Positions 5,469 through 36,117 of a stretch of DNA of 64,000 bases are shown piece by piece. Position numbers and translations under genes: made by a program. How positions within the stretch are numbered: position 1 is the first letter of the stretch; each line of letters begins with the position of its first letter. The notes beneath the pieces are model-generated. The model was not told where the DNA came from, did not search any database, and saw only the letters and a program-made list of their open reading frames with translations. Location of the stretch: positions 9,380-73,379 of the forward strand of contig DATLSG010000016.1 in the NCBI GenBank assembly GCA_035534275.1. Direction: 5' to 3'. Source of the DNA: Steroidobacteraceae bacterium. Its GTDB lineage: Bacteria; Pseudomonadota; Gammaproteobacteria; Steroidobacterales; Steroidobacteraceae.

Positions 5469-5687
5469 TCAATTGCGCGAATCGCCTAAATGCGGAGCAC
5501 AGGGGTACGCCATATCGATATGGGTCGCGATTGCCTTCGATTCGCACAAGATGAAGTCACCGTGGCGCATCACTGCAATATTGCCGAAAGGATGAATGGT
5601 GTCCACGTCTGGCGCATGTGGACGCGCAGGCATCCGCGTGTAAGGCACATTGCTTTTTCGGCATCGCGATCCGCAGCGTGCGAACAA
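5469..5687 (-). pseudogene. glutathione S-transferase N-terminal fragment, truncated at the integrase remnant
   Basis: HPFGNIAVMRHGDFILCESKAIATHID matches the GST thioredoxin-fold motif (PfGkvPvL..g..l.ES.AI..Y). No C-terminal GST domain follows. Confidence 0.55.
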
Positions 5688-5726
5688 AGATCGATTGCGG
5701 CACGCCGATGAGTTAGAGGTTCGGCA

Positions 5727-10221: not shown

Positions 10222-11406
10222 CTACCGGTTCTCGGTCCTTATAGCGAGGCGAAGCCTGGCGAGGTCGGCGTGCCGCGTGGTGATCGCGCGATGATCGACT
10301 GCGAGCCGCAGGTCGCGAAGCATTTCGAGCGATCGTAGAAGCACCGGCAACGGCGGCCCGCTGGCGGTAATGCCTTCCAGGCCCGGTTCGTCGAGATTGG
10401 CGGCCGGTTCCTCGATGAACCGTCTGACCAATCCGTCGTGGTGCTGTGCCGCCGATTGCCCGAACAAATCGCAGACGTCAAGATACGCCCGGGCGTTGCG
10501 TTGAAACCAATCCGCAGGGGCGTATTCTCCGACGAGCGCGAGCAACTCATCCAGCAGACTGGTGCGCGTCATACAGTCGCGTAGTCGTGCTTGATCTGAT
10601 GGCAGCATGAACGGCATTTTGTCGACCAGCAGCTGCGCATAGTAGGGGTCGTTGGCTCGGCACAAGCCCAAGAGCAGATCGAGTTCGTTGATGCCGGAGA
10701 AATCCCCGGCGTTTGCGCCGCGGTACTCCTGACGACCGACCCGGTACGGCTTGTAATATGGCCTCACCGAATAGAAAAATCGCTCGACATCCAGCTGGGC
10801 CATCAGCCGGTCGTTGAATCGCATGACGTCGCGGAGCGCCTGCTTCGCCACATCAAACATTACGTCCGCCACGGGACTGGAAACCCCCAGATGAACGATA
10901 CTCGTGAGCGCGTCCGCCGCCCGCTGCAAGGACAGAATCCCACGCGTATTCTCATCGATGAATACGAACTCATCCCGTAGGGACGTAAAGCTCTTGCGAA
11001 CGCCGGCGCGCGCCTTGTTGTGGGTCGCCAGATGTCCGGTCGAAAATCTCGGTGCCATGCCAAGCGATGCGCCTACGTGCAGGGCGAGCGACGAGGCGTC
11101 CGGAAACGGCGAGCGCTCTTCGCGTGCCGGATTGGTGAGCTCGTGCCGGCGCAACGCGCCGAGGTACATACCGACGCTGCCGAGTACGCCAAACGCGCTG
11201 TCGAACCCGTCGCCGGTGTTGCCCTCGGCGAGCAGCGCGCCGACGTAGGTTTGACCTTCATCGCGCAGCGCCGCCTTGATCGAATCGCCGCAGCCGATCA
11301 CCTGCCCGCGATTCTCCTGCGCGAAATACAAATTCTCCAGCTCGGTATTCATCTGAACGAAAGAGGTTCGAAGCCAGTTCTCGAACGCTACTGCTCTGCT
11401 GCTCAT
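10222..11406 (-). CDS. PrnB-like (DUF1864; IDO/TDO-superfamily heme enzyme) protein
   Basis: 394 aa. FFYSVRPYYKPYRVGRQEYRGANAGDFSGINELDLLLG resembles, from memory, the PrnB segment [29 protein letters not shown]. The family assignment has not been checked by search. Confidence 0.45.
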   Translation of the reverse strand: MSSRAVAFENWLRTSFVQMNTELENLYFAQENRGQVIGCGDSIKAALRDEGQTYVGALLAEGNTGDGFDSAFGVLGSVGMYLGALRRHELTNPAREERSPFPDASSLALHVGASLGMAPRFSTGHLATHNKARAGVRKSFTSLRDEFVFIDENTRGILSLQRAADALTSIVHLGVSSPVADVMFDVAKQALRDVMRFNDRLMAQLDVERFFYSVRPYYKPYRVGRQEYRGANAGDFSGINELDLLLGLCRANDPYYAQLLVDKMPFMLPSDQARLRDCMTRTSLLDELLALVGEYAPADWFQRNARAYLDVCDLFGQSAAQHHDGLVRRFIEEPAANLDEPGLEGITASGPPLPVLLRSLEMLRDLRLAVDHRAITTRHADLARLRLAIRTENR

Positions 11407-15136: not shown

Positions 15137-16192
15137 TTATTCGCCGGCAGCGCGGGATTCTGCCAATGCATTCAATTCATACTTCATGATCCGGCCGTGA
15201 GCGCCGGTGCGATCGCGCTCCAAATCGTATATATCCCCTGAGGGGCCTCGCCGCCGGCAAACGACGCTTGCAATCGACGACAAGTCGTCGGCGTGCAGGC
15301 GAACGCGGTCGATGCCTGCGTGTGCGTCGAGGTGTGAGGTATCGACGGCGCCGACGATCGCCGCGGCGACCTGATCCCGGTCGAGAATCGCGCGTGTCGC
15401 GACCGTGGCGATGTCAGTGTCATGCGTTGCGGCGATGCGGCTGAGCGCGCCAAGTAGCTCCTGGAACAAGCCCCAGCCGCCGAAATCCTCGATGATCAAC
15501 TTGTACTTGGCCAATGAGCGGTTGGCCAATTCCGTTCGCGGCGCCGGCTGGCCCAGCCACCGCTCGGAGAGAAATCCGCCGCACACGGTGCCGTAGCATA
15601 GCAAAGCGATATTTGCCGATCGACAGTAGGCCACCATGCCGTGATTCGCACGATCATCCACCAGCGAGTATTGAACTTGATGCGCCGTGATCGGGATTCC
15701 CGCGTCGACGAGTTCCCTCAGCCGTGGCGTGTCGAAATTGGTGGCTCCCAATCGCGCGATTTTCCCGGCCCGGCGCAGCCGGTCGAGCTCGAACGCTGTC
15801 TCGACGTAGCGCCGGGTCGCAAAATCCCACCAATGAAACTGCACTAGATCCAGGCGCTCCTGTCCCAAGCGCGTCAGGGATCGATCGATGATGGCTTCAA
15901 CCTGCGTGCGGCCAAGCGAGCGCAAATCGGCGAGGTCGGGAACGAATTTGGTATGGATCTGGATCTGCTCGGCGTGCGTCGGGTATGCCCGCCGGAAACT
16001 GCCGATCAGAAGTTCCACACCCGTATAGATATCCGCACAATCGAATGAGGTGATCCCGGCGTCGACGAACGACGCCATGTCCTTGCGCGCTTGACGAGGA
16101 TCTATGACTCCATGGTCACCGGCGAGGTGCCAACCGCCTTTGATGATCTGCGAAATTGCGTAATCGGCGGACAGCGAGATTCGGGGAATCAC
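15137..16192 (-). CDS. aldo/keto reductase
   Basis: 351 aa with FDCADIY..., GATNFD and other AKR-like segments. GTG start overlaps the upstream stop. Confidence 0.8.
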   Translation of the reverse strand: MIPRISLSADYAISQIIKGGWHLAGDHGVIDPRQARKDMASFVDAGITSFDCADIYTGVELLIGSFRRAYPTHAEQIQIHTKFVPDLADLRSLGRTQVEAIIDRSLTRLGQERLDLVQFHWWDFATRRYVETAFELDRLRRAGKIARLGATNFDTPRLRELVDAGIPITAHQVQYSLVDDRANHGMVAYCRSANIALLCYGTVCGGFLSERWLGQPAPRTELANRSLAKYKLIIEDFGGWGLFQELLGALSRIAATHDTDIATVATRAILDRDQVAAAIVGAVDTSHLDAHAGIDRVRLHADDLSSIASVVCRRRGPSGDIYDLERDRTGAHGRIMKYELNALAESRAAGE

Positions 16193-16563
16193 CGCGGATG
16201 CCCGCCCGCGAGGGAAGTTGCGGTAACCTGCGAGCGGCTGAAGCGGCGGCGGCCGGTGCGGGTAATCCGAAAGCGGGTCGGGCAGTTCGGGTCGGGGCAG
16301 GCCACCTCCGCGTCGGTCGACATCCAGTCATTCGGATCGGTAACGCGCTGTTTGGCGGGCAGCAAGGGCAGCAATGCCGCCAAGGAATATATCGAAAATC
16401 CCTGACCTGGCGGAAGCGTCAGCATCTCGCCCTGCAGTTCGAAATAATCACCCGATCGCGCGCCGCAATAAATCGTTCGATCGGGTGTTCCGACCACATC
16501 GACGCGCAGATCGTAGAGTTCGAATGCGTCGGAATCTTGTGGGTCATCGGGTTGCGGCGTCAC
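16189..16563 (-). CDS. TIGR04076-like small Cys-containing protein
   Basis: LYDLRVDVVG...CGARSGDYFELQGEMLTLPPGQGFSIYSLAALLPLLPAKQR...CPDPNC resembles the TIGR04076 family as I recall it. The start is uncertain: GTG at 16563 overlapping the gntR stop, or TTG at 16587. Confidence 0.45.
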   Translation of the reverse strand: MTPQPDDPQDSDAFELYDLRVDVVGTPDRTIYCGARSGDYFELQGEMLTLPPGQGFSIYSLAALLPLLPAKQRVTDPNDWMSTDAEVACPDPNCPTRFRITRTGRRRFSRSQVTATSLAGGHPR

Positions 16564-17261
16564 GCGACTCCATCCCGCCGCTGCCAAAGCGACTCGTCAC
16601 TCATCACGATATCGAACGCGCGGCCAATGTCGGCCTCCAGCGCCGCACGCGCTGCAATCCCATCGGACTGCGACAGCGCATCGAGCATTTCGCGGTGAAA
16701 ATTCGTCCCCCGCCCCTCGCCTCCGTCGAAGCGCTCGGAAGCCTGGCGCAGATAGGGTCCGAATTGGAGCCAGAGGCTTTCAATGATCGGCAAGATGACC
16801 GTCGACCCCGATTGACGATAGATCGCGAAGTGAAACGCGCGATTTTGTTCCGCACTTCGTTCCGAGACATGATCTTCGTCAGTCTCGCATTGAGCCACGA
16901 TCAGCCGCTCGAGCGTCGCCAGCGCCTCACTCGTAATATTTGACGCGGCGCGCGCAATCGCCAACCCCTCGATCGCAAACCGCGTCTCCCGCAAGTCTTG
17001 CAATGCGTCTTTTGACAGGGTCGGGACACGCACGGTCCGACTGGGCAAGGTTTCCAGTGCGCGCTCGACGGCCAAGCGGTTGAGAGCCTCGCGAACGGGC
17101 ATGGCACTGGTGCCGAACGCCTCCGCCAGGTCGGCAATTTTCAGCTTTTGCCCAGGTTCAAAGCCACCCCGCATCAATTGATCCCGAAGCGCGCAATACA
17201 CGCGTTCCTGGACCGTTTCACGTGCGATACGCACCAACCCGAGATCGGCACCCATCGGCAT
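16560..17261 (-). CDS. GntR family transcriptional regulator (FCD/FadR-type C-terminal domain)
   Basis: 233 aa with the wHTH segment LKIADLAEAFGTSAMPVREALNRLAVERALE and a helical C-terminal domain. Confidence 0.85.
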   Translation of the reverse strand: MPMGADLGLVRIARETVQERVYCALRDQLMRGGFEPGQKLKIADLAEAFGTSAMPVREALNRLAVERALETLPSRTVRVPTLSKDALQDLRETRFAIEGLAIARAASNITSEALATLERLIVAQCETDEDHVSERSAEQNRAFHFAIYRQSGSTVILPIIESLWLQFGPYLRQASERFDGGEGRGTNFHREMLDALSQSDGIAARAALEADIGRAFDIVMSDESLWQRRDGVA

Positions 17262-17274
17262 CGGCAGATCCTCG

Positions 17275-17299
17275 ATTTATGATCAGACATTTATAATCA
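17275..17299. promoter_or_regulatory. AT-rich direct repeats just upstream of the GntR gene (candidate operator/promoter)
   Basis: ATTTATGATCA (17275-17285) and ATTTATAATCA (17289-17299), period 14. They begin 14 nt upstream of the gntR start and form a locally AT-rich island. Confidence 0.3.
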
Positions 17300-17874
17300 A
17301 AGATCTTCGATATTGCAAGCGTATATCCGGAATTGCAGCGCCCCGCGGCCTTCGCGGCCTGAAAAAATGCCGATGCTGACCCACGCACCAGCGGCGATCG
17401 CGGCCAAGTTATTGATAGCCTGACAGATCACAGGGACGATTCGCCGCATCTTCACGGGATGTCGGCGATCTCGGCGGTGCGGTGCGATGATGCCTATGCC
17501 CTGGACCGGCGACGGCGGCCGCGACGCCGCAACGGGGCCGGTCGCGGACGCGACCGGCGCGGTCGGACTCTGGAGGGCATTCATGCCACGATCCTGGCCT
17601 CGTCTGGCGAACCCTCCGGAGCCGCCGATTTGCGTGTTCGTGGGCGAGTTCTCGAACCTCGGGTCCGGAGCATAAGCCGTCTTGGCCGCGGCGTTCGTGC
17701 ACAACCATCGCGCTTGCGCCGCATACCCCGTCGCCGTGCGGGCGATGCGATGCCCCGTGGCCGCAATTCGGTCGACCTGGATAGACGTCATCTATGGAAG
17801 GCATGAAAGCGATCCACTTCCATAATCTTCTGCACCGGCCGATGCTGCCGGCATGGCAAACACCGGAGAACACC

Positions 17875-23381: not shown

Positions 23382-25481
23382 TTATTCGGACGCCGGTATC
23401 GTGATCATCGCGATCGTTCTTTGGCCGAGCAGCGCGCCGGGGCCTGGGTCGTTGATTTTCACGTAGAATCGCGTCGGTTCGAGCCGTGTGGGATCTGAAA
23501 CGATTGGAATGAACAGGCTAAGGGTGCGTCTGCCCGCCTTGATGTGCGCAATGCGGGCAGCGAATCCCGTGAAGTCCTTTCCGGCAGCCGCCGTTCCAGG
23601 TTCGGTTCGCCACATGAAACTCACCGTGCGGCGCCAATTGCCGCTTCGCCGGATCACAATCTGAGCAAATGCGCCGCCCCGTGCAACCTGAATCAGATTG
23701 GCCGTCAACTCAATGCGCGCGAGCGCCGCACGGCCAGTCAGAACGCCGCGCCTGGGGCCGCGTGCGCGAGCGCCGAGGTGCGCCTTCGTTTCGATGGTCG
23801 CAACCGGCCGGCCGGCACTGCGGCCGCCGTCGCGCGGATCTCGCCCATTCTCGAGGCGGTTCGCGGACACCATGTCGCCATGGACCGGCGCCAGGTGCAC
23901 AGTGATGTGGTCGGGCGCATGATTGCCTGAGGCGGTGGATCGGAGCAATTCGTGCCACGCGCGCACGATCACTTGATGGGAGCGTGCGACATCCCGGCCC
24001 AAGCTGGTATGCATAGCCGCCGCGGACGGGACGATCGGTCCGTTGGCATTTGTCATCCATACGCCGCCCGCGGTCAACAGAATCAGCGCCGCCGAGAGGG
24101 CCACCAGGAGCCCCGGCATACGCCGGCGTGGCGGCACCGTCAGCAGCGCGGACAGCTTCGGCAAGGGCCGCATTGCCGTGGTTGAAGCGAGCCGATGCAC
24201 CCACTCCGCGACATCCGAAGGGCGACGGTCGCGCCGCCAATCGAGCCCTTCCCGCAGCGCACTCCATTGGTCTGCGGTCAGTTCGGCGGGGCGGACTGGA
24301 CTCCACAGGGCGGCACGCGCTTCGATCGCGGTGCGGTTAGCGAAAGGATGCTTTCCCGAGAACAAAAAATACGCGACACAGGCCAATGCGAAGACGTCGT
24401 CGCGCGTGTCTGGCGTCCGGCCTTCGAAGACCTCGCAGCTTGCATAGCTCGGCGCTGCTATGAAATTCGAGGCTGCCGGAACCAATCCGGACGTCGATGC
24501 GGCGCCCATCACTCGATGGGCGGCGCCGAAGTCCAAAACACGCACCTCGCCGTTGCCGGTGAGAAAGATGTTTTCTGGATTGATGTCGCCGTGCGCGATG
24601 CCGCGCGAATGAGCGTGCGCAAGCGCGGCACCGACATCCCGAATGACTGTGTGGGCGTGCGCTCTATCCAGTGCCGTGCCGTTGCGCGCGCTCAAGATTC
24701 GGCCCAACGGGGCTCCCGTGAGCAATTCCATGGTAAAGAACGCCGTATCGCCATCGCGGTCGAATTCATGGACGCGCACAATGTTTGGGTGGGAAAGCGA
24801 TCGCAAATGCACGAACTCGGTCAACAATTCACTGATCAATTGCGCGCGTCGGGCGACCTCGCAATGCAAGATCTTGATGGCCAATCGTCGACCGTCTTCA
24901 TCGACGCCGACCAGATATTGATCGATGGCCTCCCATATCGTGCCCGTACCACCGCGCCCGACGATCGCCAGCAGGCGGTAGCGGCCGCGCAGGACGTCCC
25001 CAGGGGCCAAGTCCCCTGCGATCTCGTCCACGTTTGCGGGGGCCCCCGCGGGGGAATCAGGCGCGGATTGCTCGGCCGGGGCCGGTCGTGGCGCCGGTAT
25101 CTCCAACGGCGCGTCGATCTGCACCGCGGGCGCTCGACCGGCGCGTTGCAGCAGCGGCACACTGATGCAACTGCTTTGCTGTCCGCGTACCAGGAGAGCG
25201 CCCAAATACGATTCGGCTTGCTGATACACCGCGTGGCGTATTCTTCCGAGTCGGTAGTACTGGTCGATCACCGACAAGATCTCGCAGGTCTCCTCCGGGG
25301 TGGATTTCACCAATGCGCGCACTTCTCGCAGAAAGGCGTGCGGATCGTTGAAGTCGGCGACCAATGCGTCGATGCGCGCCCGCATTGTGGGCGACGATTC
25401 AGCCGTCGAAGGAATCGGATTGCCGGGGTTGGCCGCTGCGCTCATCTTTGCATAGTTACGCAACAGGGCGCGTGGCGCCAT
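23382..25481 (-). CDS. transmembrane Ser/Thr protein kinase with an extracytoplasmic Calx-beta-like domain
   Basis: Kinase motifs GRGGTGTIWEA, AIKIL, HGDINPENIF and DFGAA. One TM segment LLVALSAALILLTAGGVWM. C-terminal FMWRTEPGTAAAGKDFTGF... fits a Calx-beta pattern. Confidence 0.8.
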   Translation of the reverse strand: MAPRALLRNYAKMSAAANPGNPIPSTAESSPTMRARIDALVADFNDPHAFLREVRALVKSTPEETCEILSVIDQYYRLGRIRHAVYQQAESYLGALLVRGQQSSCISVPLLQRAGRAPAVQIDAPLEIPAPRPAPAEQSAPDSPAGAPANVDEIAGDLAPGDVLRGRYRLLAIVGRGGTGTIWEAIDQYLVGVDEDGRRLAIKILHCEVARRAQLISELLTEFVHLRSLSHPNIVRVHEFDRDGDTAFFTMELLTGAPLGRILSARNGTALDRAHAHTVIRDVGAALAHAHSRGIAHGDINPENIFLTGNGEVRVLDFGAAHRVMGAASTSGLVPAASNFIAAPSYASCEVFEGRTPDTRDDVFALACVAYFLFSGKHPFANRTAIEARAALWSPVRPAELTADQWSALREGLDWRRDRRPSDVAEWVHRLASTTAMRPLPKLSALLTVPPRRRMPGLLVALSAALILLTAGGVWMTNANGPIVPSAAAMHTSLGRDVARSHQVIVRAWHELLRSTASGNHAPDHITVHLAPVHGDMVSANRLENGRDPRDGGRSAGRPVATIETKAHLGARARGPRRGVLTGRAALARIELTANLIQVARGGAFAQIVIRRSGNWRRTVSFMWRTEPGTAAAGKDFTGFAARIAHIKAGRRTLSLFIPIVSDPTRLEPTRFYVKINDPGPGALLGQRTIAMITIPASE

Positions 25482-25868: not shown

Positions 25869-26150
25869 CTAATTCGGCGGATTGCTCGATTGACCGTCGC
25901 GCGATTCGCCCTGGTGAGCCATCTGCACCTGCCTCTGCCGCATCTTCATTTCCCGCTTGCATTCCATTCTCATATGGCTCATTGACTCGCGGCCATTCTT
26001 CGCCTTCTGATGCTCCATGCAATGACTCATCATGTGGCGTTTCTGCATCATCGTCATGTGCGTCGCCGTCATGTTGGAATCACCGGCCACGGCGTAGCTG
26101 GCGAACGCCACCACGCCTGCCAATATCATCACAGCGGATCTATGGTTCAT
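25869..26150 (-). CDS. small secreted Met/His-rich protein (possible metal binding)
   Basis: 93 aa. Signal peptide MNHRSAVMILAGVVAFASYAVAG. The mature part is rich in M/H/K/R (THMTMMQKRHMMSHCMEHQ...SMSHMRMECKREMKM). GGAG lies 6 nt upstream of the ATG at 26150. Confidence 0.5.
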   Translation of the reverse strand: MNHRSAVMILAGVVAFASYAVAGDSNMTATHMTMMQKRHMMSHCMEHQKAKNGRESMSHMRMECKREMKMRQRQVQMAHQGESRDGQSSNPPN

Positions 26151-26364: not shown

Positions 26365-26706
26365 TTACGGAGCTTCTTCGGAATCCGGATGGATCACGCC
26401 AAATTGCGCTGGAACGCTGGCATAGAAGAGTCGAATTCGCTCACCCTGGATCAATTTCAGGAGCTTTTCGGCTTCTTCGCCCGTCACGATGAATTCCACC
26501 TCGATTGCCAGCGTGCCGGCAAGCTCGAAGAATTTCGCCTCGTGCACGCGATGGTGGCGCCCGAAGCCGGCCATGGCCTTGAACGCCGAACCGCCGCGAA
26601 CGCCTAGCTTATTGGCCTGAACCAGCAACCATTCCCAGGCCGGATATCCGTGGATGCGCTCGTCCTCATGCACGTAGAAGCGCAAATAGGAACCTTCCAT
26701 TGCCAT
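26365..26706 (-). CDS. DUF190 (PII-like) protein, a family commonly linked to crcB
   Basis: 113 aa. YLRFYVHEDERIHGYPAWEWLLVQANKLGVRGGSAFKAMAGFGRHHRVHE is a typical DUF190 core. Confidence 0.8.
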   Translation of the reverse strand: MAMEGSYLRFYVHEDERIHGYPAWEWLLVQANKLGVRGGSAFKAMAGFGRHHRVHEAKFFELAGTLAIEVEFIVTGEEAEKLLKLIQGERIRLFYASVPAQFGVIHPDSEEAP

Positions 26707-26980
26707 TCCCCCCTGTCTGAAGGACCGCTCGTCGACGCACCGCGATTCTGATCCAGGCGACGGTGCCGATGCCAGCGAAAAACACCAGCACCGATCCCGG
26801 CAAATGAATCGGGGCTTGCGCGACGATCCACAGGTGGCGGCCCAATTGCTGCAAGCCGACCGGTTCGACCGAGAAGGTCGAGAAGGCGGTCAGTCCGCTG
26901 CAAAAACCGGCGATCGCCAGCCAGCGGCAGTGCACCGCCAATGCCGGGAACGCGGCAAAGACGGCGACGATGACGCTCAA
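26666..26980 (-). CDS. crcB: CrcB/Fluc fluoride channel homologue, apparently lacking TM1 and most of TM2
   Basis: The Phe-box motif GFCSGLTAFSTFS (canonical GFxGGLTTFSTFS) sits only about 26 aa from the ORF start. TTG start overlaps the upstream stop (TTGA). The upstream sequence in this frame is charged and not TM-like. Confidence 0.7.
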   Translation of the reverse strand: MSVIVAVFAAFPALAVHCRWLAIAGFCSGLTAFSTFSVEPVGLQQLGRHLWIVAQAPIHLPGSVLVFFAGIGTVAWIRIAVRRRAVLQTGGNGNGRFLFALLRA

Positions 26981-28959
26981 CGCAAGCTCAGCGCGAGGAT
27001 GCCGATCAGCAGTGCGCCGATCATCGCCAAATAAAAGTTCAGATCGCCAGACTGCAGGGCGCCCAACCTGCGGGCGAGGCGCGACACTCCGCGCCGGATC
27101 GGCGTGAACACCAGCGGTCCGAAGACATCGGCGACGTCATGATTCAACTCGACCTTGCGGATGAAGTAGACGACCGTGCGGTGTTCGCGCGCGGTATCGA
27201 GTGTCGGGCGGTAGATGAAACTGTAGAACGTGCGCATCGCATTCGCGAACGTGAGCGACGTGGTCGCGGCGCGGTGCGCCTCTTCCCGCATTCCGCCGTA
27301 CCACACCCGCGCGCTGCGTACGGCGTGCCGCCGCAAATTGAGCAGCAGCAGCAGCGGCAGGATTGCCAGCAGCGGCGTGACCAGGATCAGTTTCGTCGGC
27401 GAGATGAACGCAAACGTATCGGTCAGCGGTACGAGCAGCCAGCCATGCGACATGGCACGCGCGCTGTGGGCGCCGAATTGCCGGAAGGTCGCCGCGTCGA
27501 GCGCGCCGAGCCAACGGGGCAAGCCCACGGCGGTGGCCGCCACGGCGAGCCCGAGGACTAAGGCGGCAAAGCCGTGACGAGCGCCGATGCGCGGTGCATC
27601 GCTCGGATCGGATGCGCCGAGCAGACCGATGCCGAACGCTTTGACGAAGGTCGCGAGCGCGACCGCGGCGGTGAGCGCGATGCCCGCACCGGCCAGGGCG
27701 AGCGTCACGCGACCGGCCACAGTGGTCAACTGGAAACCCTGAAACAGGGTCTGGAATGTGAACCACTCGGTGACGAAGCCGATCTGGGGCGGCATCGCCG
27801 CGAGACTCATGGCGGCGAAGAGGGCGCCGATCCCGAAGCCCCAGGGGGCCCGACGCAGCCAGCCGCGCTGTGCAATCCGGTAGCTGCCGCCCGCGGTAAA
27901 AACGCCGTCCGCGCAGACAAACAGGCCGCCCTTGGCGAGTGCGTGCCCGGCGAGGTGGAGCATGGCCACGGTCCAGGCGAGGCCCGCCAGCAGCCCTTGC
28001 CCGTCGGCGCGAAATATCAGGCACGCACCGAGTGCGGTCACGGCAATTCCGGCGTTCTCCGCGGAAGAAAAGGCCAGAAGACGGCGCCAGTCGTCCTGTT
28101 GCAAGGCGTAGAGGACCGCAAGAACCGCGGATAGCGCGCCCGCCGCCGTCACCAGGACGCCGAGAGTGAAGATCCCCGCGCCGTTGCCTGGAAGCCAATT
28201 GACCAGGCCGCGCGACAGCGCGAAGAATGCGGCATTCAGCACGACTCCCGATAAGATCGCGCCCGACGCGCCGCTGCCGGTCGCGTAGGCTCCCGGAAAC
28301 CACTCATAGAAGGGCAGCAAGCCGAGTTTTGCGCCGAAACCGATCAGCAGCAGGACGCCGATCCACACTTGCGCTCCCGCCGAAAGAGACGGCGCGACAG
28401 ACTTAAACCCGTCGAATGCGAGGCTGCCGCCGGCGTGACGCGCGAGCAGCAGCAACGCGAGCAGGATCGCGACCGCTCCCACCTCCAATAGCGCGAGCAT
28501 GAACATGGCGCTGGGCCCGGGGTGCGATGAGAGGCGTTCGGAGAGAATCATCACGGCGCCGCCGAAGCTCATCAATTCCCACGCGAGCAACAGCGAATAC
28601 CCGTCCTGCAGGCCGAACACGCCGACCGCGCCGAGCATCGACATCGTGGCACCGGCGATCCAACCCGATCGGCGCGTGCACACCGGCGTGTTCACCCACA
28701 CGGCGATTGCCGCCGGCGCCAGTCCGAACCCCATCAGCCACAGCGCACCGCTCGTGTAGTGCAGCTGCACTCGCTGGCCGGCGAGCGCGAACCCCAGCGG
28801 CCACGCCGCTGCGCCCTGCGGCAGGGCAATCACCGCGGCCGCGACTCCAACGGCAGCGCCGAGGCCCGCCAGCCATCGCGCCGGGGTATCGGCGCCGCCC
28901 ATGGCGAGCAACAGTCCGCCGAAAAGCGAAGCGGCGCTTATGGCGATGGCTTCAAGCAT
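26977..28959 (-). CDS. antiporter-like membrane subunit (HyfB/HycC/NuoL-like) of the Ehr-type complex
   Basis: 660 aa and polytopic. Proton-conducting-transporter core (WLPGAYATGSGASGAILSGVVLNAAFF..., AFSSAENAGI, HALAKGGLF). HyfB/HycC-like C-terminus LQSGDLNFYLAMIG. Confidence 0.85.
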   Translation of the reverse strand: MLEAIAISAASLFGGLLLAMGGADTPARWLAGLGAAVGVAAAVIALPQGAAAWPLGFALAGQRVQLHYTSGALWLMGFGLAPAAIAVWVNTPVCTRRSGWIAGATMSMLGAVGVFGLQDGYSLLLAWELMSFGGAVMILSERLSSHPGPSAMFMLALLEVGAVAILLALLLLARHAGGSLAFDGFKSVAPSLSAGAQVWIGVLLLIGFGAKLGLLPFYEWFPGAYATGSGASGAILSGVVLNAAFFALSRGLVNWLPGNGAGIFTLGVLVTAAGALSAVLAVLYALQQDDWRRLLAFSSAENAGIAVTALGACLIFRADGQGLLAGLAWTVAMLHLAGHALAKGGLFVCADGVFTAGGSYRIAQRGWLRRAPWGFGIGALFAAMSLAAMPPQIGFVTEWFTFQTLFQGFQLTTVAGRVTLALAGAGIALTAAVALATFVKAFGIGLLGASDPSDAPRIGARHGFAALVLGLAVAATAVGLPRWLGALDAATFRQFGAHSARAMSHGWLLVPLTDTFAFISPTKLILVTPLLAILPLLLLLNLRRHAVRSARVWYGGMREEAHRAATTSLTFANAMRTFYSFIYRPTLDTAREHRTVVYFIRKVELNHDVADVFGPLVFTPIRRGVSRLARRLGALQSGDLNFYLAMIGALLIGILALSLR

Positions 28960-29770
28960 GCGCCTCTCCCGGCGCGATCCGGCCGCCGCGGACGCGTTGC
29001 GGTGCGCGCTCCATGAGGATCAGCAGTGCGTGAATGATCGCGGCCGGGTTCGGCGGGCAGCCGGGCAGATATACATCCACCGGCAATTCACCGTCGAGTC
29101 CCCGGCCGCAGGCGTAGCCGCCGCCGTTCGTCCCGCCCGAGACCGCGCAGGTGCCGACCGCCATCACGAAGCGCGGTTCCGGCATCGCTGCGTACGTCTC
29201 ACTCAGCGGTCCGCGCATCGCGTAGGTCACGGGGCCGGTGACCAGCAGCAGGTCGGCGAAGCGCGGTGACGCGGTGAAGAAGACGCCCAGGCGGTGCAGG
29301 TTGTAGTACGGATTATTGAGCGCCTGCAATTCCGATTCGCAGCCGTTACAGGAACCGGCGTCGACGTGCCGTACGTGCAGGCTGCGGCCGAAAACACGCC
29401 GAATGCCGGACCTCAATGCCTCGCCGGCAGGCGATTCCACCGCTTCGTTCCACAGAAGATCTTCCCGCCGACGCACGCCGAACGCCCAGTCCGCGGAGCT
29501 CGTCAGCGCGCCGGTCGGGCAGACCTCGACGCACAACTGACAGGCCACGCAGCGCCCGTAGTCGAGCGCCACGCGCAAGGGCGATGCCGATTCGGTCAGC
29601 GTAATCGCCTGCGGCAGGCAGGCGTCGGCACAGCGCCGGCAGCCCTCTTCGCATTTGCTCGCCTCGAGGCGCGGCATGCCGAGTACTCCTTGCTGCCCGT
29701 CCGGGCCAGATCGAGGCCACGCAGTGCTCACCTTGCCTTGGGTCAAACCGAACAGCGTCCACAGGGGCAT
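28952..29770 (-). CDS. fused 2x[4Fe-4S] ferredoxin (HycF/NuoI-like) and NuoB/HycG-like small subunit
   Basis: N-terminal CEEGCRRCADAC and CVACQLCVEVCP. C-terminal part has VDAGSCNGCE, GTCAVSGG and LPGCPPNP, which are the four proximal-cluster cysteines. GGAGG lies upstream of the ATG at 29770. Confidence 0.85.
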   Translation of the reverse strand: MPLWTLFGLTQGKVSTAWPRSGPDGQQGVLGMPRLEASKCEEGCRRCADACLPQAITLTESASPLRVALDYGRCVACQLCVEVCPTGALTSSADWAFGVRRREDLLWNEAVESPAGEALRSGIRRVFGRSLHVRHVDAGSCNGCESELQALNNPYYNLHRLGVFFTASPRFADLLLVTGPVTYAMRGPLSETYAAMPEPRFVMAVGTCAVSGGTNGGGYACGRGLDGELPVDVYLPGCPPNPAAIIHALLILMERAPQRVRGGRIAPGEAHA

Positions 29771-29788
29771 GGCAATACCTCCGCTCGT

Positions 29789-31279
29789 CTATCGGTCGCA
29801 GCCGGCTATCGTGAGGCCGAAACTCGCCTCATTGATTGCGTAATCCATCATGTTGCTCTCGTGTACAGTGAACGCGAACACCCGCCAGTTCGAAAAGCTC
29901 GGGGATTTGATCTTGACCCGTGCCAGGCGCCCGCGGCCATCGACATGCACCGAGTAGTACAGAGAGCCGCGCGGCGATTCGCACCAGCCGATGCCCTCGG
30001 CGCCCGGTGCGACCTCACACACGCTGCGGATCGGACCGTCGGGCAGGGATTCCAGCGCACGTTCGATGAGCCGGACGCTGCGATGTATTTCGGCGATGCG
30101 TACCTGCTGGCGTGCGTGGGCGTCGCCGGCCTGCCGCACGGCGATCTCGACCGGCAACTGCGGATACGCGGCGTACGGTTGGTCCTGGCGCAGGTCGCGC
30201 TCGAGCCCCGAGGCGCGCTCGACCGGACCGGTGGCGCCTTGGTCGAACGCGAGCTTGCGGCTGAGTACGCCGGTCGTGATGAGCCGATCGAGGTGCGACG
30301 ACGTCGACTCGAGCATCTCGGCGTACGCGCCGAGTTCGGCATCCAGCGGGCCCAGGGCATCGAGCAAACCCGCGAGCCGCGGCATGCGCCGCAATCCGCC
30401 GGGAGCAATCAGGCCGCGCAGCAGACGGTTGCCGGTCGCGCGGCCGTTGATCTGCTTCGCGAGCTCCTCGAGGTACTTGCCTTCGGCTTCGCCGACTTTG
30501 AGCGTGGTCGCATGACATAGATGGCCAAGGTAATGCAGGTGGTTGTAGAGTCGCTCGAGCTCGGCGAGCAGCACACGCAGCCAGCGTGCGCGCGCGGGCA
30601 CCGCGCAGCCCGCCGCCGATTCGAGCGCCTGGCAATAGGCGAGCGCATGGGCGACGCTGCCGACCCCGGATACGCGCTCGGCGAGCACCGCGCCGAGCTC
30701 GGGCGCGAGTCCCTCGAATCGCAGCTCCATGCCGCGGTGCTTGAAGAATAGCTGCGGGTGGTAGTGAACGATGGCTTCGCCGAGATAATAGAAATCGAAC
30801 TGCGCGGACTCGACTACGTCGGCGCGCACCGGGCCGAACGGCAGTATCTGCACCTCGCCCGAGGTTCGGCCGGCAATTTCCGGCAGAGGCGGCGGCGCCG
30901 GCGTGTAGCGCACGGTGGCCCGTGAGCCGGGCAGCAAAGGCGGGACTGAGGCCTGCGCGCCCGGCAGAAGCACGAGCGGTCTTGGCTCCGGCAGGTTTTC
31001 AAAATGCAGGCCGCACAGATCGGTGACTTCCCGCTCGTACCACGACAGCAGCGGCGCGATCGCGGCGAGACTGGGTGTCCCCTCCGGACCCGGACGGCAA
31101 CGCCAGATCCGCATCGCTTGCGTGCCGCGATGAATCAGGTACCGGAGCTCCGGCGTCCCGGCCTCGCGGTCCGGGAACCAGGCATAGAGCATCTGCAGGC
31201 GTTCGCCGGCGCCGACCGCGTTCTCGCAGCGCCGCTGCAGATCCGCCACCGCCACGTCTTCGAGTTGCGGCGCGCTCAT
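29789..31279 (-). CDS. NuoC-NuoD/HycE-like 'large subunit' lacking the [NiFe] cysteine ligands (Ehr-type)
   Basis: 496 aa from the ATG at 31279, which overlaps the upstream stop as ATGA. L1 motif is ERVSGVGSVAH versus hydrogenase R-x-C-G-x-C-x-x-x-H. The C-terminus is GLTIAGCDR-stop versus D-P-C-x-x-C-x-x-R. The 881-aa track ORF is an upstream extension overlapping the previous gene. Confidence 0.85.
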   Translation of the reverse strand: MSAPQLEDVAVADLQRRCENAVGAGERLQMLYAWFPDREAGTPELRYLIHRGTQAMRIWRCRPGPEGTPSLAAIAPLLSWYEREVTDLCGLHFENLPEPRPLVLLPGAQASVPPLLPGSRATVRYTPAPPPLPEIAGRTSGEVQILPFGPVRADVVESAQFDFYYLGEAIVHYHPQLFFKHRGMELRFEGLAPELGAVLAERVSGVGSVAHALAYCQALESAAGCAVPARARWLRVLLAELERLYNHLHYLGHLCHATTLKVGEAEGKYLEELAKQINGRATGNRLLRGLIAPGGLRRMPRLAGLLDALGPLDAELGAYAEMLESTSSHLDRLITTGVLSRKLAFDQGATGPVERASGLERDLRQDQPYAAYPQLPVEIAVRQAGDAHARQQVRIAEIHRSVRLIERALESLPDGPIRSVCEVAPGAEGIGWCESPRGSLYYSVHVDGRGRLARVKIKSPSFSNWRVFAFTVHESNMMDYAINEASFGLTIAGCDR

Positions 31280-32799
31280 GGAACGGCCTTGCCCGAGAGT
31301 TGGGCGGCGACGACCGAAAAATAGTGGGAGATGGCCTGCGGCCACCATAGTCCCAGTACCAGCAGGGGCACGAGCGCCAACCACATCGGCAGCACGCACC
31401 AGACGCTCTCGCGCACCGGTGCGCGGGCGGCCCCCGCCGATCCGCCCGTCTGCGCACCCGCCGGCGCCGCGGTGTGTCCGCCAAAGTACATCGCGCGGAA
31501 ATGATCGAGGAAGCCGACGAAAATCACGACCAGCAGCGGCAGCATCACGAACACGGCCCAGGCGTTGACCCCTGCCAGGCCCGCACGCATGATCGTAAGT
31601 TCGCTCAAGAACAAGCTGAAGGGCGGCGCCCCGGTGATCGCCACCGCCCCGGCGAGCCAAAGGAGCCCCGAGGCCGGCAGGGAGCGCAGCACGCGGTGGA
31701 TGCGGCTGATCCGCTTCGTGTGAAATGCCTGCATCGTGTTGCCGGCGCCGAAGAACATCAGCGACTTGTTCAAGGAATGCCCGAGCATGTGATACAGCGC
31801 GCCCGCGATCCCGAGCGGCCCGCCGAAACCGAAGCCCAGGGTCATGATGCCCATGTGCTCGACGCTCGAATAAGCCATGAGACGCTTGATGCCGCGCTGG
31901 CGCACGATGAACAGCGCGGCGATGAACAGCGAAAACGCGCCGATCGAGACCACCACGAGGCGCGGCAGGGCTCCGAGACGGCCTCGGTCCGCGACTTGGA
32001 GAAAACGCACGATTCCGATCATCGCCGTATTGAGCAGTGCACCGGAAAGCATCGCCGACACCGGCGCGGGTCCCTCGCTGTGGGCATCCGGCAGCCACGT
32101 GTGCATCGGCGCGAGACCCACTTTGGTGCCGAAGCCGATCAGCACGAGGAGAAACGCGGCGAGTGCGACGGTCGGGTTCAGCTGCGGTGCGACGGTGCGC
32201 AGGGCCGCCCAAGTCAAGTCGTAGGTGGGGCCCATGCGCAGGCTGCCCGCCCAATAGAACAGGATGATCCCGAGGAGCGCCAGGCTGATCCCCGCGGAAA
32301 CCACGACGATGTATTTCCACGCGGCCTCGACGCTGTCGCGGCGGAGCTCGAAACACACGAGAAACGTGCTGACGAGCGTCGTCAGTTCGATCGCGATCCA
32401 GTACACGCCGATGTTGTTCATCAGCGGACCGCACAAGGTGGTAAGCGCGAAACCGGCGAAAAGTGCATAGAAACGATGCAGGCGGCCCGCCTCATCGAGT
32501 CGGCGCATGTAGCCGATCGCATAGATCGACGAAAGCAGATACACGCTCGCGACACTGAGCAGGACCCAGGCGCCGAGCGCGTCGACGATCAGGTAGCCGT
32601 GCCAGAACGTCAGTGTCCTCACGAGTGCTCGCGGCAGCAGCAGCAGCACGGCTGCAAGGACCGAGACGGCCGCGGTCAGATTGAGGTATTCGGCCGGCCG
32701 CGGCCGCCTCGCGAGCAAACAGCCCAGCACTGCGGCGAGCGGTGCGAGGAGAATCACCCCGAGCAAACCGCCCACGATCCGGTCGTTCGCATCCATCAT
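31276..32799 (-). CDS. antiporter-like membrane subunit (HyfF/NuoN/NuoM-like)
   Basis: 507 aa from the ATG at 32799 (ATGA overlap). Contains GLAPMHTWLPDAHSEGPAPVSAMLSGALLNTAM and MAYSSVEHMGIM motifs. Confidence 0.85.
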   Translation of the reverse strand: MMDANDRIVGGLLGVILLAPLAAVLGCLLARRPRPAEYLNLTAAVSVLAAVLLLLPRALVRTLTFWHGYLIVDALGAWVLLSVASVYLLSSIYAIGYMRRLDEAGRLHRFYALFAGFALTTLCGPLMNNIGVYWIAIELTTLVSTFLVCFELRRDSVEAAWKYIVVVSAGISLALLGIILFYWAGSLRMGPTYDLTWAALRTVAPQLNPTVALAAFLLVLIGFGTKVGLAPMHTWLPDAHSEGPAPVSAMLSGALLNTAMIGIVRFLQVADRGRLGALPRLVVVSIGAFSLFIAALFIVRQRGIKRLMAYSSVEHMGIMTLGFGFGGPLGIAGALYHMLGHSLNKSLMFFGAGNTMQAFHTKRISRIHRVLRSLPASGLLWLAGAVAITGAPPFSLFLSELTIMRAGLAGVNAWAVFVMLPLLVVIFVGFLDHFRAMYFGGHTAAPAGAQTGGSAGAARAPVRESVWCVLPMWLALVPLLVLGLWWPQAISHYFSVVAAQLSGKAVP

Positions 32800-33476
32800 C
32801 CCACCAATCGGCGCAAGTCGTGAGCGCTCGACGTCCCCGCGTGCAGGAGGAGGTATCGGACCAGCACACCGAAGCATGCGACCACGACGAGCAGGTCGAA
32901 GAGGATCACGAGTTCGATCAACAGCGGCATGCCGGGCACCAAAATCTGGGAACCGAGGAAAATGCCGTTCTCCAGTACCAGGAGACCGAGAATCTGACTG
33001 ATCACCTCGCCGCGCACGGCCAGCATCAGGAAACCGATCAGCTTCATCGACAACATGACGGTCAACGCGAGCACGGCCACGCTACCGGCGATCCCCAAGG
33101 AAATGCCGACGTGATCGGCGACGACGAAGGCGAATATCACGAGCAGCGCGCCGACCACGAGGCTAGAGCTCGGCGAGAGCCGCTCGTGCAGTTCGCGGTC
33201 CACATTCATCTGGCGGACGATGCGCAGGAGCAGGTAGGGCAGCAGCAAGCCGCGAAACAGCGCCGTGAGGACGGCGATCAGATACAGTTCGGGATAGTGT
33301 CCGTAATAGCCGATTGCCACGGACAACAGTGCGATCAACCAGGATTGCACGGCGAAGGCGAGCAGATAGTCCTTGAGCCAGCGCGATCCGAGCATCACGA
33401 ACGCAAGCAGCAGGCTCGCGATCGCGAGGAGGCTGAAGAGCGATGCGGCGAGCGGCGGCAGATGCACGGCGAACAT
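32796..33476 (-). CDS. HyfE-like small polytopic membrane subunit (NuoK-related)
   Basis: About 226 aa and very hydrophobic (LFSLLAIASLLLAFVMLGS..., LVLENGIFLG...). It occupies the HyfE position between the HycD-like and HyfF-like genes. Confidence 0.7.
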   Translation of the reverse strand: MFAVHLPPLAASLFSLLAIASLLLAFVMLGSRWLKDYLLAFAVQSWLIALLSVAIGYYGHYPELYLIAVLTALFRGLLLPYLLLRIVRQMNVDRELHERLSPSSSLVVGALLVIFAFVVADHVGISLGIAGSVAVLALTVMLSMKLIGFLMLAVRGEVISQILGLLVLENGIFLGSQILVPGMPLLIELVILFDLLVVVACFGVLVRYLLLHAGTSSAHDLRRLVG

Positions 33477-33480
33477 GACG

Positions 33481-34422
33481 TCAACGCAATTGGTTGGCGA
33501 CGATCGCCAGCACCGCAAGCAGGAAAGAGGCGGCCAACGGCTCCTGATAGCGGAAATAGCGCAACCGCGACTGGACCGTCTCGACGAACACGACCGCGAG
33601 TGCGACGAACGAGAACTTGCCGAGCAACGCCGCGGCGGCGCCGACGGCGCCGATCGCGGAGCCGTGGTGCGACAGCCACCAGGGGAGCAGGAGCACGTTG
33701 CAGAAGATCGTATAAAGGATGAACTGCTTCATCATGGCGGCCCACTTCAGCAGTGCGAGCAGCGGTCCCGAGTATTCCAATATGCGCGCCTCGTCGATCA
33801 TGTAGACCTCGATGTGCGTGCTGGAGTGGATCGGCAGGCGGTCGGTCTCCACGAGCAGCAAAATGAAAAAGGCCGCCACCAGGAACAGGTGCGCGGGACC
33901 CCAATAGACCGCGGGTTGCCCGGCCAGAAGGTGGTTCACGACGAACGGCAACATGGCCTTGGCGAGCAGGGTGATGCCGACGAAGACCAGGATCAGGGTG
34001 GGTTCGGCCAGGATCCCGAGCATCACGGCACGCGATGCGCCAATGCCGCCATATGCGCCGCCGGAATCCAATCCGGCAAGCGTGATCATGAACGAACCGA
34101 GCGTCAGGATGAACCCGCCACCAAGGATGTCGCCCATGTCGGACAAGGGCAGCGGATAGTCGGTCAACACGGGGATCAGGATCGGCACCGTCAGCATGCA
34201 GGTGAACGCGACGACCGGCGCGATCCAATAGATGAAGCTCGCCGTCTCCGGGACGACCGCTTGCTTATGCAACAGCTTCCACAGGTCGCGGTACGGCTGC
34301 AGGATCCCGGGACCCTGCGCGCGCTGCACGCGCTCCTCCCACTGCAGGATCACTCCCTGCAGCAGTGGCGCGAGCAGCATCACGCTCAGTACTTGGGCGA
34401 TTTGCAGCAGGATGTCGCGCAT
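33481..34422 (-). CDS. HycD/HyfC/NuoH-like membrane subunit
   Basis: 313 aa from the ATG at 34422. MRDILLQIAQVLSVMLLAPLLQGVILQWEERVQRAQGPGILQPYRDLWKLLHK is the characteristic HycD/NuoH N-terminus. AGGA lies about 10 nt upstream. Confidence 0.85.
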   Translation of the reverse strand: MRDILLQIAQVLSVMLLAPLLQGVILQWEERVQRAQGPGILQPYRDLWKLLHKQAVVPETASFIYWIAPVVAFTCMLTVPILIPVLTDYPLPLSDMGDILGGGFILTLGSFMITLAGLDSGGAYGGIGASRAVMLGILAEPTLILVFVGITLLAKAMLPFVVNHLLAGQPAVYWGPAHLFLVAAFFILLLVETDRLPIHSSTHIEVYMIDEARILEYSGPLLALLKWAAMMKQFILYTIFCNVLLLPWWLSHHGSAIGAVGAAAALLGKFSFVALAVVFVETVQSRLRYFRYQEPLAASFLLAVLAIVANQLR

Positions 34423-34507
34423 CACGCCGTCCTGCGCTGCAGACGAACGGCCGGCGCGAACTGCGCACCCGGGGCCCGAACGGTCGATCGGTTGAGTGTC
34501 GCCGCCA

Positions 34508-34532
34508 CCAAACCCTCTCTTCATCCAGAGGT
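34508..34532 (-). terminator. weak hairpin plus U-containing tract downstream of the riboswitch aptamer (possible expression platform)
   Basis: RNA is CCUCU-GGAUGAAG-AGAGG followed by GUUUGGU. The stem is only 5 bp and the U tract is poor. No clear competing pairing with the aptamer 3' strand was found. Confidence 0.25.
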
Positions 34533-34540
34533 CGGATTAT

Positions 34541-34593
34541 GGTAGGCATCATCGGCCGAGAATCCGGCGGTTCGAGGAGGAATGCCATCTCCC
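34541..34593 (-). promoter_or_regulatory. fluoride riboswitch (crcB RNA motif) aptamer
   Basis: Minus-strand RNA is GGGAGAUGGCAUUCCUCCUCGAACCGCCGGAUUCUCGGCCGAUGAUGCCUACC. P1 is GGAG/CUCC around AUGGCAUU. The conserved GAACCGCC is present. P3 is GCCG-GAUUCU-CGGC. The conserved GAUGAUGCCUAC is present. The pseudoknot is GGCAU:AUGCC. Confidence 0.85.
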
Positions 34594-34601
34594 GCGGATT
34601 C

Positions 34602-34630
34602 AATATACTAGCTGCGACAGAGCGCGGCAA
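34602..34630 (-). promoter_or_regulatory. sigma-70-like promoter driving the riboswitch leader
   Basis: On the minus strand, TTGCCG (34630-34625), a 17 nt spacer, then TATATT (34607-34602). The -10 ends 8 nt before the first aptamer G. Confidence 0.55.

Positions 34631-34710: not shown

Positions 34711-36117
<1,407 letters not shown>

Follow-up and report, generated by a model that had tools for sequence, protein, structure and literature searches.

Group 4 [NiFe] hydrogenases carry their NiFe ligands in two motifs, an N-terminal RxCGxC and a C-terminal DPCxxC, and the formate hydrogenlyase (FHL) of E. coli is controlled by FhlA and formate. Ehr (energy-converting-hydrogenase-related) complexes were reportedly catalogued bioinformatically by Marreiros et al. 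in 2013, and we know of no biochemical function for them. They are also mentioned in PMC6349859. Here we describe an 8-kb operon encoding an Ehr-type complex behind a fluoride riboswitch, located in a 64,000-nucleotide stretch of a Steroidobacteraceae genome (contig DATLSG010000016.1, positions 9,380 to 73,379; the whole of this stretch is hereafter called the window). A survey of related loci in several phyla revealed that members of this family invariably carry the complex together with the riboswitch.

That fluoride riboswitches stand before genes named after FHL has been reported. Weinberg 2010 (PMC2864571) listed 'formate hydrogen lyase' genes downstream of the crcB motif, which is the listing mentioned in an earlier reading of the window made from its letters alone (the sequence-only reading). 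A 2024 review (PMC11139923) takes this association from Baker et al. 2012 and understands it as true FHL, with formate oxidation and a fermentative shift. The association between riboswitch and 'FHL' is already known (2010, 2012), and the window copy is an ordinary member of a widespread family. Four points appear to be new: what the complex is, how strict and how widespread its link to the riboswitch is, the existence of a second paralogous family, and the leader mechanism described below. Our literature search found no paper in which these genes are identified as a Cys-less Ehr complex or in which Ehr is connected with fluoride; searches for DUF190, hydrogenase or hydrogenlyase together with the fluoride riboswitch yielded only the known listing under 'formate hydrogen lyase'.

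The fluoride riboswitch and its Ehr-type cargo

The aptamer scored 51.5 bits against a gathering score of 34 (cmscan, Rfam; E 2.3e-11; positions 1-64 of 64) and was the sole Rfam match at gathering threshold in the 64-kb window. A family-specific covariance model (R1) gave it 67.8 bits. It lies on the coding strand in a 5' leader position, 111-114 nucleotides (nt) before the first gene, and a sigma-70-like promoter found by a consensus scan ends one base before it. A promoter box ending at the aptamer start was observed for 42 of 72 related riboswitches, compared with 0-3 at control offsets, and related gammaproteobacterial loci carry the TTGCCG...TATATT box in identical placement.

Eight minus-strand open reading frames (ORFs) follow the riboswitch, six of which are the tightly packed genes of the complex. 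Pfam, PDB and NCBIfam matches, all under the NCBIfam equivalog cut-offs, identified a Hyf/group-4-like subunit set. The HyfE-like subunit was recognised by a single match, to the NCBIfam hydrogenase 4 membrane subunit (cut-off 136 bits, above the score obtained), and had no Pfam match. Among solved structures, MbhH (6cfw_H) is the best relative of the HyfF-like subunit and HycC (7z0s_C) that of the HyfB-like subunit, and both antiporter-like subunits are also matched by MrpA and MrpD. The start of the nuoH-like gene was set by 70 orthologues that begin M/V-T/R-R-D-I-L-L-Q. Overlaps of 4, 4 and 8 nt between consecutive genes were reproduced by independent gene calls in three other assemblies carrying the same sequence.

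The best solved relatives of the large subunit are HycE (7z0s_E, 177 bits) and Pyrococcus MbhL, followed by the 49-kDa subunits of complex I. Alignment to HycE and MbhL showed other residues at three of the four NiFe cysteine positions (S204, G207, T490), so that C494, which is retained in 77 of 79 orthologues, is the sole cysteine left. The hydrogenase N-terminal CGxC reads SGVG here (S204, G207), within a motif, ERVSGVGSVAH, that is invariant or nearly so in the family. A HMMER pass over 1.84 billion cluster representatives (50% identity) returned 6051 relatives. Among the best 150 of these, 115 were full-length proteins, 90 of them with neither CxxC motif and 19 with both; relatives at 32-62% identity were mostly Cys-less, and true hydrogenases were found at 34-40% identity. 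Because 90 of 115 are Cys-less, the large subunit belongs inside a large Cys-less (Ehr-type) radiation.

These observations bear on the interpretation given in PMC11139923, according to which the operon would encode a genuine FHL or hydrogenase-4 and fluoride would elicit formate oxidation and H2 evolution. E. coli HycE and HycC are indeed the best solved relatives, and database names such as 'formate hydrogenlyase subunit 5' and 'Ni,Fe-hydrogenase III large subunit' point the same way. However, the substitution of three of the four NiFe cysteines is a fixed motif of the family, all scores stay under the NCBIfam hydrogenase equivalog cut-offs, and neither fdhF nor hyp nor hycI appears in the gene calls, which extend over about 1-41 kb and 44.6-64 kb of the window. 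The same calls contain haem-copper oxidase genes and point to a probably aerobic host. These findings effectively exclude a true FHL. The complex is of the Ehr type and belongs neither with the hydrogenases nor with canonical complex I. The sequence-only reading had proposed just such a NiFe-less relative of Hyf and FHL, in a single, tightly coupled unit led by a fluoride riboswitch and a sigma-70-like promoter at 34630-34602, with the same subunit identities and with no hyp, fdhF or hycI in the window, and our searches, as far as the gene calls extend, agree with it on each of these points.

Sampling one genome per GTDB species yielded 509 loci encoding a relative, and the best 80 of these (60-73% identity) were fetched. 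They come from Steroidobacteraceae, other Gammaproteobacteria, isolates of Alcaligenaceae (Pollutimonas, Pusillimonas, Candidimonas), Xanthobacteraceae, Mesorhizobium montanum and Acidobacteriaceae. With a covariance model built from 22 Rfam-detected riboswitches in the first nine loci, we detected 154 fluoride riboswitches in the 80 loci and the window. The sequence-only reading had asked how often such riboswitches precede Cys-less HycE homologues. In every locus with at least 3.8 kb of sequence upstream of the large subunit (70 of 70, ten others being too short), a same-strand riboswitch occupies the identical position, directly before the nuoH-like gene and 3.16-3.9 kb upstream of the large subunit. 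The six-gene order was invariant among related loci. Riboswitch-led loci span Alpha-, Beta- and Gammaproteobacteria as well as Acidobacteria, a spread over several phyla that makes chance or hitch-hiking implausible. Such comparative data strengthen the link well beyond what could be known to the sequence-only reading.

Furthermore, three loci carry a second operon 3' of the first, with identical gene order and about 38-46% identity, behind a riboswitch of its own. The large subunit of this paralogous family has no NiFe cysteine at all (ERFNGITAFAH ... SFGLSVAENDR). Five further contigs of the family, including Verrucomicrobiae, Thermoanaerobaculia and one 5.6-Mb genome, all have a co-directional fluoride riboswitch upstream, either directly or with crcB-DUF190 or enolase between. 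We also noted that the paralogous NuoB-like subunit reads GNPPPP where GCPP is expected and may be one cluster ligand short. On a thermoanaerobaculial contig (L088, 534-1244), a 236-amino-acid (aa) protein with tandem DUF190 domains and a faint P-II match adjoins crcB. On contig L086, the region downstream of the paralogous operon encodes a Na/Pi cotransporter-PhoU fusion (15707-17320) next to a dynamin-like GTPase led by a riboswitch, and this fusion fits the reported link between phosphate and fluoride tolerance (PMC11139923).

At many of the loci, two to five riboswitches make up a 'fluoride island'. Genes led by the other riboswitches encode an AAA_22 ATPase (13 loci), a MutS_V-like protein (10), CrcB (7), dynamin-family GTPases (7), enolase (6), a 151-aa protein of no known function (5), DUF190 (4) and CLC (2), along with an SNF2 helicase and an IlvD/Edd dehydratase. 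None of the AAA, MutS-like or dynamin-like island genes was found in the window. Up to five fluoride riboswitches occur within 19 kb (L026 of Pollutimonas bauzanensis, L004, L041, L065 and others), often as divergent back-to-back pairs about 150 nt apart, such as 5380-5445 (-) and 5627-5690 (+) in L004. The window has a full-length enolase gene at 34711-36033 (-), directly upstream of the riboswitch promoter; it has no riboswitch of its own, unlike the riboswitch-led enolase genes of the six related loci. Many of the metagenome-assembled genomes (MAGs) come from peat or soil projects (record titles name, for example, palsa and SPRUCE), and such settings are acidic habitats.

A leader ORF between aptamer and operon

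No intrinsic terminator was found that could serve as expression platform: no U-tract hairpin follows the aptamer, and terminator-like matches were at chance level and located inside genes. A short upstream ORF lies between the aptamer and the first structural gene, and its stop codon overlaps the start of the nuoH-like gene (GTGA/TGATG). In the minimum-free-energy (MFE) fold, the 3' tail of the aptamer (GCCUACC...) is able to pair with GGUUUGGUGGC, a segment that contains the start codon of this ORF (TTG 34511 or GTG 34508) just 3' of a strong Shine-Dalgarno-like AGAGAGGG. The resulting hairpin covers both the Shine-Dalgarno region and the start codon. Its outer stem, CUACC/GGUAG-GGUGG, is present in 23 of 23 gamma- and betaproteobacterial loci, with one compensatory change. 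In Alphaproteobacteria, as read from the sequences, a UCCUUUC tail pairs directly with the Shine-Dalgarno sequence GAGAGGA. The fold of the whole leader was no better than that of shuffled sequences (z = 0.05).

An upstream ORF that is preceded by a Shine-Dalgarno sequence and ends at the start of the first gene was found in 53 of 67 loci. Its length elsewhere ranges from 10 to 57 codons and its sequence is not conserved. The frame itself is stop-free in 58 of 65 leaders, compared with 17 and 25 for the other two frames and with 32 +/- 3.9 (maximum 46) over 1000 shuffles of the leaders, and an NTGA overlap marks the junction with the nuoH-like gene in 48 of 65. An N-terminally extended nuoH-like protein starting at ATG 34524 (347 aa) was considered and rejected, because the orthologues begin at M/V-T/R-R-D-I-L-L-Q and because the upstream nuoH frame is stop-free in just 17 of 65 leaders, as against 58 of 65 for the +1 frame.

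From these features we infer a translational ON switch that gates the leader ORF, which in turn would be coupled to the first structural gene. When fluoride is absent, the 3' tail of the aptamer would be paired with the Shine-Dalgarno and start region of the leader ORF. Fluoride, which according to the literature is bound by the aptamer as an Mg-F complex, would lock the tail into the aptamer pseudoknot and free the leader ORF for translation. Ribosomes ending the leader ORF at the GTGA overlap would then re-initiate on the nuoH-like gene, and the overlapping stop/start junctions further on would pass translation along the operon. The same ribosomes would probably also shield the leader of about 110 nt from premature termination, and a Rho-dependent component in leader control is possible. 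A leader ORF with a stop/start overlap offers a testable route by which a small translational riboswitch could control an 8-kb operon.

A proposed redox-driven pump and the fate of crcB

Apart from the missing NiFe and quinone ligands, the complex looks functional. All 12 cluster cysteines, namely C40/44/47/51 and C74/77/80/84 of the ferredoxin type and C141/144/208/238 of the NuoB type, show no variation among 76 orthologues from four classes. The Glu of transmembrane helix (TM) 5 and the Lys residues of TM7 and TM12 are retained in both antiporter-like subunits; E138, K226 and K345 of the HyfF-like subunit are at least 97% conserved in 70 orthologues, and E128, K211 and K343 of the HyfB-like subunit are conserved as well. 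Conserved membrane acidic residues were also found in the NuoH-like subunit and in the HyfE-like subunit (E63, E169, E188). A three-cluster Fe-S wire and two antiporter-like ion channels have been kept. In comparison with the closest relative, the Ehr genes show an amino-acid-changing to synonymous ratio of about 0.55-0.6, the differences being mostly synonymous, and are seen to be under purifying selection.

According to PMC11139923, HF accumulates as a weak acid, acidifies the cytoplasm and drains the proton-motive force (PMF), Fluc export depends on the membrane potential, and Na+/H+ antiporters rank second in frequency among the cargo of fluoride riboswitches. Taken together, the Fe-S wire, the channels of cation/proton type and this published physiology make a redox-driven pump the best-supported reading. 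The complex would draw electrons from a soluble donor, such as a ferredoxin-like carrier, at its HycF-like domain and use them to move H+ or Na+ outward. In acidic, fluoride-bearing soils, such pumping would offset what HF entry and electrogenic F- exit cost the cell, namely an influx of protons and a drain on the PMF. We give roughly even chances to a redox-driven ion pump of this kind, induced by fluoride and serving to restore PMF and pH, which is the function that the sequence-only reading had proposed.

Several points weigh against this picture. Neither the operon nor its surroundings encode an identifiable electron donor or acceptor, and both sets of ligands, those for NiFe and the His/Tyr pair for quinone, are missing from the large subunit. 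Since related genomes and two duplicated loci (L026/L028, L016/L017) were counted, the locus counts do not represent independent events. Covariation in the expression platform is thin, amounting to one compensatory pair, because the outer stem overlaps the aptamer and is nearly invariant. Moreover, the leader could work via Rho instead of translational re-initiation.

The quinone ligands also bear on whether the complex could be a complex-I-like donor:quinone oxidoreductase, a fluoride-insensitive substitute for some fluoride-sensitive enzyme of respiration or energy conservation and not a dedicated pump that rescues the PMF. Its architecture is that of a minimal complex I/NDH-1 core, with NuoH-, NuoB-, NuoCD- and NuoI-like parts and antiporter-like subunits, and the replacement or over-production of inhibited enzymes such as enolase and pyrophosphatase is a theme of the fluoride regulon (PMC11139923). 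However, alignment to T. thermophilus Nqo4 places V156 and G205 at the positions of the quinone ligands His38 and Tyr87, and a fluoride-sensitive counterpart was not identified. We consider such a substitute unlikely.

If the peripheral module were a structural or regulatory relic, the operon might instead encode a redox-independent, Mrp-like Na+(K+)/H+ antiporter for pH homeostasis. This would accord with the MrpA, MrpD and MbhH matches of the antiporter-like subunits and with the frequency of Na+/H+ antiporters among riboswitch cargo (PMC11139923). In contrast, invariance of the 12 Fe-S cysteines would be unexpected for a relic, and the peripheral subunits are conserved as strongly as the membrane subunits. 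These observations make an antiporter uncoupled from redox chemistry quite improbable, and the redox-driven pump remains our preferred interpretation.

The CrcB/Fluc channel is a four-helix protein of about 120-130 aa. The sequence-only reading had taken crcB as classical cargo at the end of the operon, followed by DUF190; the latter holds, the former does not. The Pfam match of the crcB remnant is partial (positions 37-103 of 103, 35.6 bits against 32.9), its best NCBIfam CrcB score of 55 bits lies under every cut-off of that collection (125 for that match), and no gene was called there in three assemblies. In the closest relative (L091, with a large subunit 86% identical), hyfB is followed by an intact 129-aa crcB and by DUF190. 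Relative to L091, the window shows a clean 204-nt deletion that starts three bases after the hyfB stop and took the spacer, the ribosome-binding site and codons 1-49 of crcB, which encode helix 1 and the greater part of helix 2. What is left of the gene no longer has its stop codon, and several prolines have appeared in it along with further non-conservative changes. Amino-acid-changing and synonymous differences stand at 21:13 in the remnant, compared with 218:380 in the Ehr genes (Fisher p = 0.006). On this comparison, crcB here is a recent pseudogene under relaxed constraint. No second crcB or CLC was found within the window. DUF190 is intact, was called in three assemblies with a Pfam score well above gathering, and shares 81% amino-acid identity with its L091 orthologue.

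A search by tblastn with the remnant as query had suggested that the crcB-DUF190 tail is not conserved. This was rejected, as full-length CrcB queries find crcB directly 3' of hyfB, with no riboswitch between, in 23 of 71 loci, with DUF190 next in 14 of those. A tail with crcB is a common arrangement, and what failed is the intact copy in the window. A recent deletion has inactivated the co-transcribed crcB here, leaving the complex and DUF190 as the only functional cargo. Its decay is a local curiosity that slightly weakens the point about classical cargo.

One may ask whether the whole locus is decaying in this MAG, so that the link between riboswitch and operon would be a fossil. Besides the crcB pseudogene, one of three assemblies (L081, 6858-7799) has the nuoH-like gene split into parts of 206 and 106 aa, whereas the other two have it intact at 313 aa; the split is either a population variant or an assembly error. 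However, the window and two other assemblies have all six structural genes and DUF190 in intact form, the divergence from the nearest relative is mostly synonymous, and the riboswitch scores well above threshold. We regard general decay as highly improbable.

Retention of the complex and DUF190 under purifying selection while crcB decayed also raises the question of direct fluoride handling, in which the complex would carry out primary redox-driven extrusion of F- or HF, or act as an obligate partner of DUF190 or CrcB, and could replace Fluc. In favour of this, the family stands exclusively behind fluoride riboswitches and often shares a transcript with crcB and DUF190, and its metal-free pocket with the conserved C494 has no assigned substrate. 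A speculative form of this idea makes the pocket at the end of the invariant Fe-S wire part of a dedicated fluoride machine, the complex either expelling F-/HF or energising DUF190/Fluc; if so, the complex could persist as the main fluoride defence after loss of crcB, as in this genome. Yet no anion-selective element is recognisable, the Glu/Lys pattern is of the cation/proton type, and the genome outside the window may hold another crcB or CLC-F. Direct handling by the complex, and the dedicated machine in particular, thus strike us as very unlikely, and we retain the redox-driven ion pump as the working interpretation.

Features of the window and comparison with known systems

Table 1. Coordinates of the features of the operon and of the paralogous operons. 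Positions are those of the window, except for the last line, where they are those of the contigs named.
Feature	Position	Strand	Basis
Sigma-70-like promoter, TTGCCG-N17-TATATT	34602..34630	-	consensus scan; ends one base before aptamer
Fluoride riboswitch aptamer (RF01734)	34536..34601	-	cmscan 51.5 bits, full model 1-64
Expression-platform hairpin (predicted)	34504..34547	-	MFE fold; tail GCCUACCAUAAUCC pairs with GGUUUGGUGGC
Upstream leader ORF, 29 codons	34422..34511	-	TTG 34511 or GTG 34508; TGA 34424-34422
NuoH/HycD-like membrane subunit, 314 aa (GTG 34425) or 313 aa (ATG 34422)	33481..34425	-	Pfam NADHdh, 116 bits
HyfE-like small membrane subunit, 226 aa	32796..33476	-	NCBIfam 'hydrogenase 4 membrane subunit', 55.8 bits
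HyfF/MbhH/NuoN-like antiporter-type subunit, 507 aa	31276..32799	-	Pfam Proton_antipo_M, 176 bits
Fused NuoC+NuoD/HycE-like large subunit, 496 aa	29789..31279	-	Pfam Complex1_30kDa + NiFeSe_Hases + Complex1_49kDa
2x[4Fe-4S] ferredoxin (HycF/NuoI-like) fused to NuoB/HycG-like, 272 aa	28952..29770	-	Pfam Fer4_7 + Oxidored_q6
HyfB/HycC/NuoL-like antiporter-type subunit, 660 aa	26977..28959	-	Pfam Proton_antipo_M
crcB remnant (pseudogene)	26666..26980	-	homology restricted to 26747-26980 = CrcB residues 48-125 (tblastn)
DUF190 (COG1993; PF02641) protein, intact	26365..26706	-	Pfam 66.3 bits, gathering score 23.4
Paralogous six-gene Ehr-like operons	L025 13548-19581; L014 7779-9974; L019 4914-7351; L086-L090		

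Beyond the operon, a 93-aa ORF at about 25869-26150 (-) lies roughly 215 nt downstream of DUF190 and was called in three assemblies (15130-15411 in L081). The N-terminus of its product resembles a signal peptide, His and Met are very abundant (MTATHMTMMQKRHMMSHCMEHQ...), and Pfam gave no match; the ORF could encode a periplasmic metal-binding protein. A Ser/Thr protein kinase with a C-terminal Calx-beta domain is encoded just downstream of the operon at 23382-25481 (-), and a homologue of the PrnB family (pyrrolnitrin biosynthesis) about 15 kb further on, at 10222-11406 (-). Two exact-protein look-ups, made for genes in the right-hand part of the window, returned no match.

Ehr complexes make up a large and widespread group of relatives of complex I and hydrogenases, and the link to fluoride gives this orphan family a testable role in fluoride tolerance. 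The finding that two Ehr families invariably stand behind fluoride riboswitches supplies a clear inducer and a stress context, and cultured hosts suited to genetics are available in Pollutimonas, Candidimonas, Pusillimonas and Mesorhizobium montanum. It also corrects the review reading in which fluoride riboswitches control FHL and a fermentation shift, and suggests instead that membrane energetics is central to how acid-soil bacteria tolerate fluoride.

Compared with the Pyrococcus MBH and MBS (6CFW, 6U8Y) and with Mrp, the complex has a related membrane arm, MbhH being the best match of the HyfF-like subunit, and MBS provides a precedent for a hydrogenase relative with changed chemistry. The subunit complement differs, however, MBH retains its NiFe site, and neither system is linked to fluoride. 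None of the Mrp small subunits was recognised here, no search having been aimed at MrpB/C/E/F/G. With the complex I/NDH-1 core (T. thermophilus Nqo4/6/8/12-14) the complex shares NuoH-, NuoB-, NuoC/D- and NuoI-like modules, the NuoB-type [4Fe-4S] ligands, the TM5 Glu, the TM7 Lys and the TM12 Lys. In contrast to complex I, it has no NADH module and two antiporter-like subunits only, with Val and Gly in place of His38 and Tyr87.

E. coli FHL (Hyc, 7Z0S) and hydrogenase-4 (Hyf) are closer in composition. The subunit set and order are Hyf-like, comprising HyfB, HycD/HyfC, HyfE, HyfF, the large subunit and the ferredoxin and small-subunit modules. Unlike Hyc and Hyf, the complex described here lacks the NiFe ligands, fuses its HycF-like and HycG-like parts into one protein, has no FdhF, HycB, Hyp or HycI, and is under fluoride riboswitch control. 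As for the classical fluoride riboswitch-crcB units of B. cereus and T. petrophila, the aptamer family is the same and so is the proposed ON-switch logic, in which the 3' tail doubles in an alternative helix. The platform differs in having no U-tract terminator and appears to gate a leader ORF coupled to an 8-kb operon. The cargo differs too, being an energy-converting complex, with crcB secondary and dead in this genome. Finally, other Ehr complexes likewise consist of group-4-hydrogenase-like subunits without NiFe cysteines, and the two families described here are set apart from them by a regulatory input, fluoride, and by a fluoride-regulon neighbourhood.

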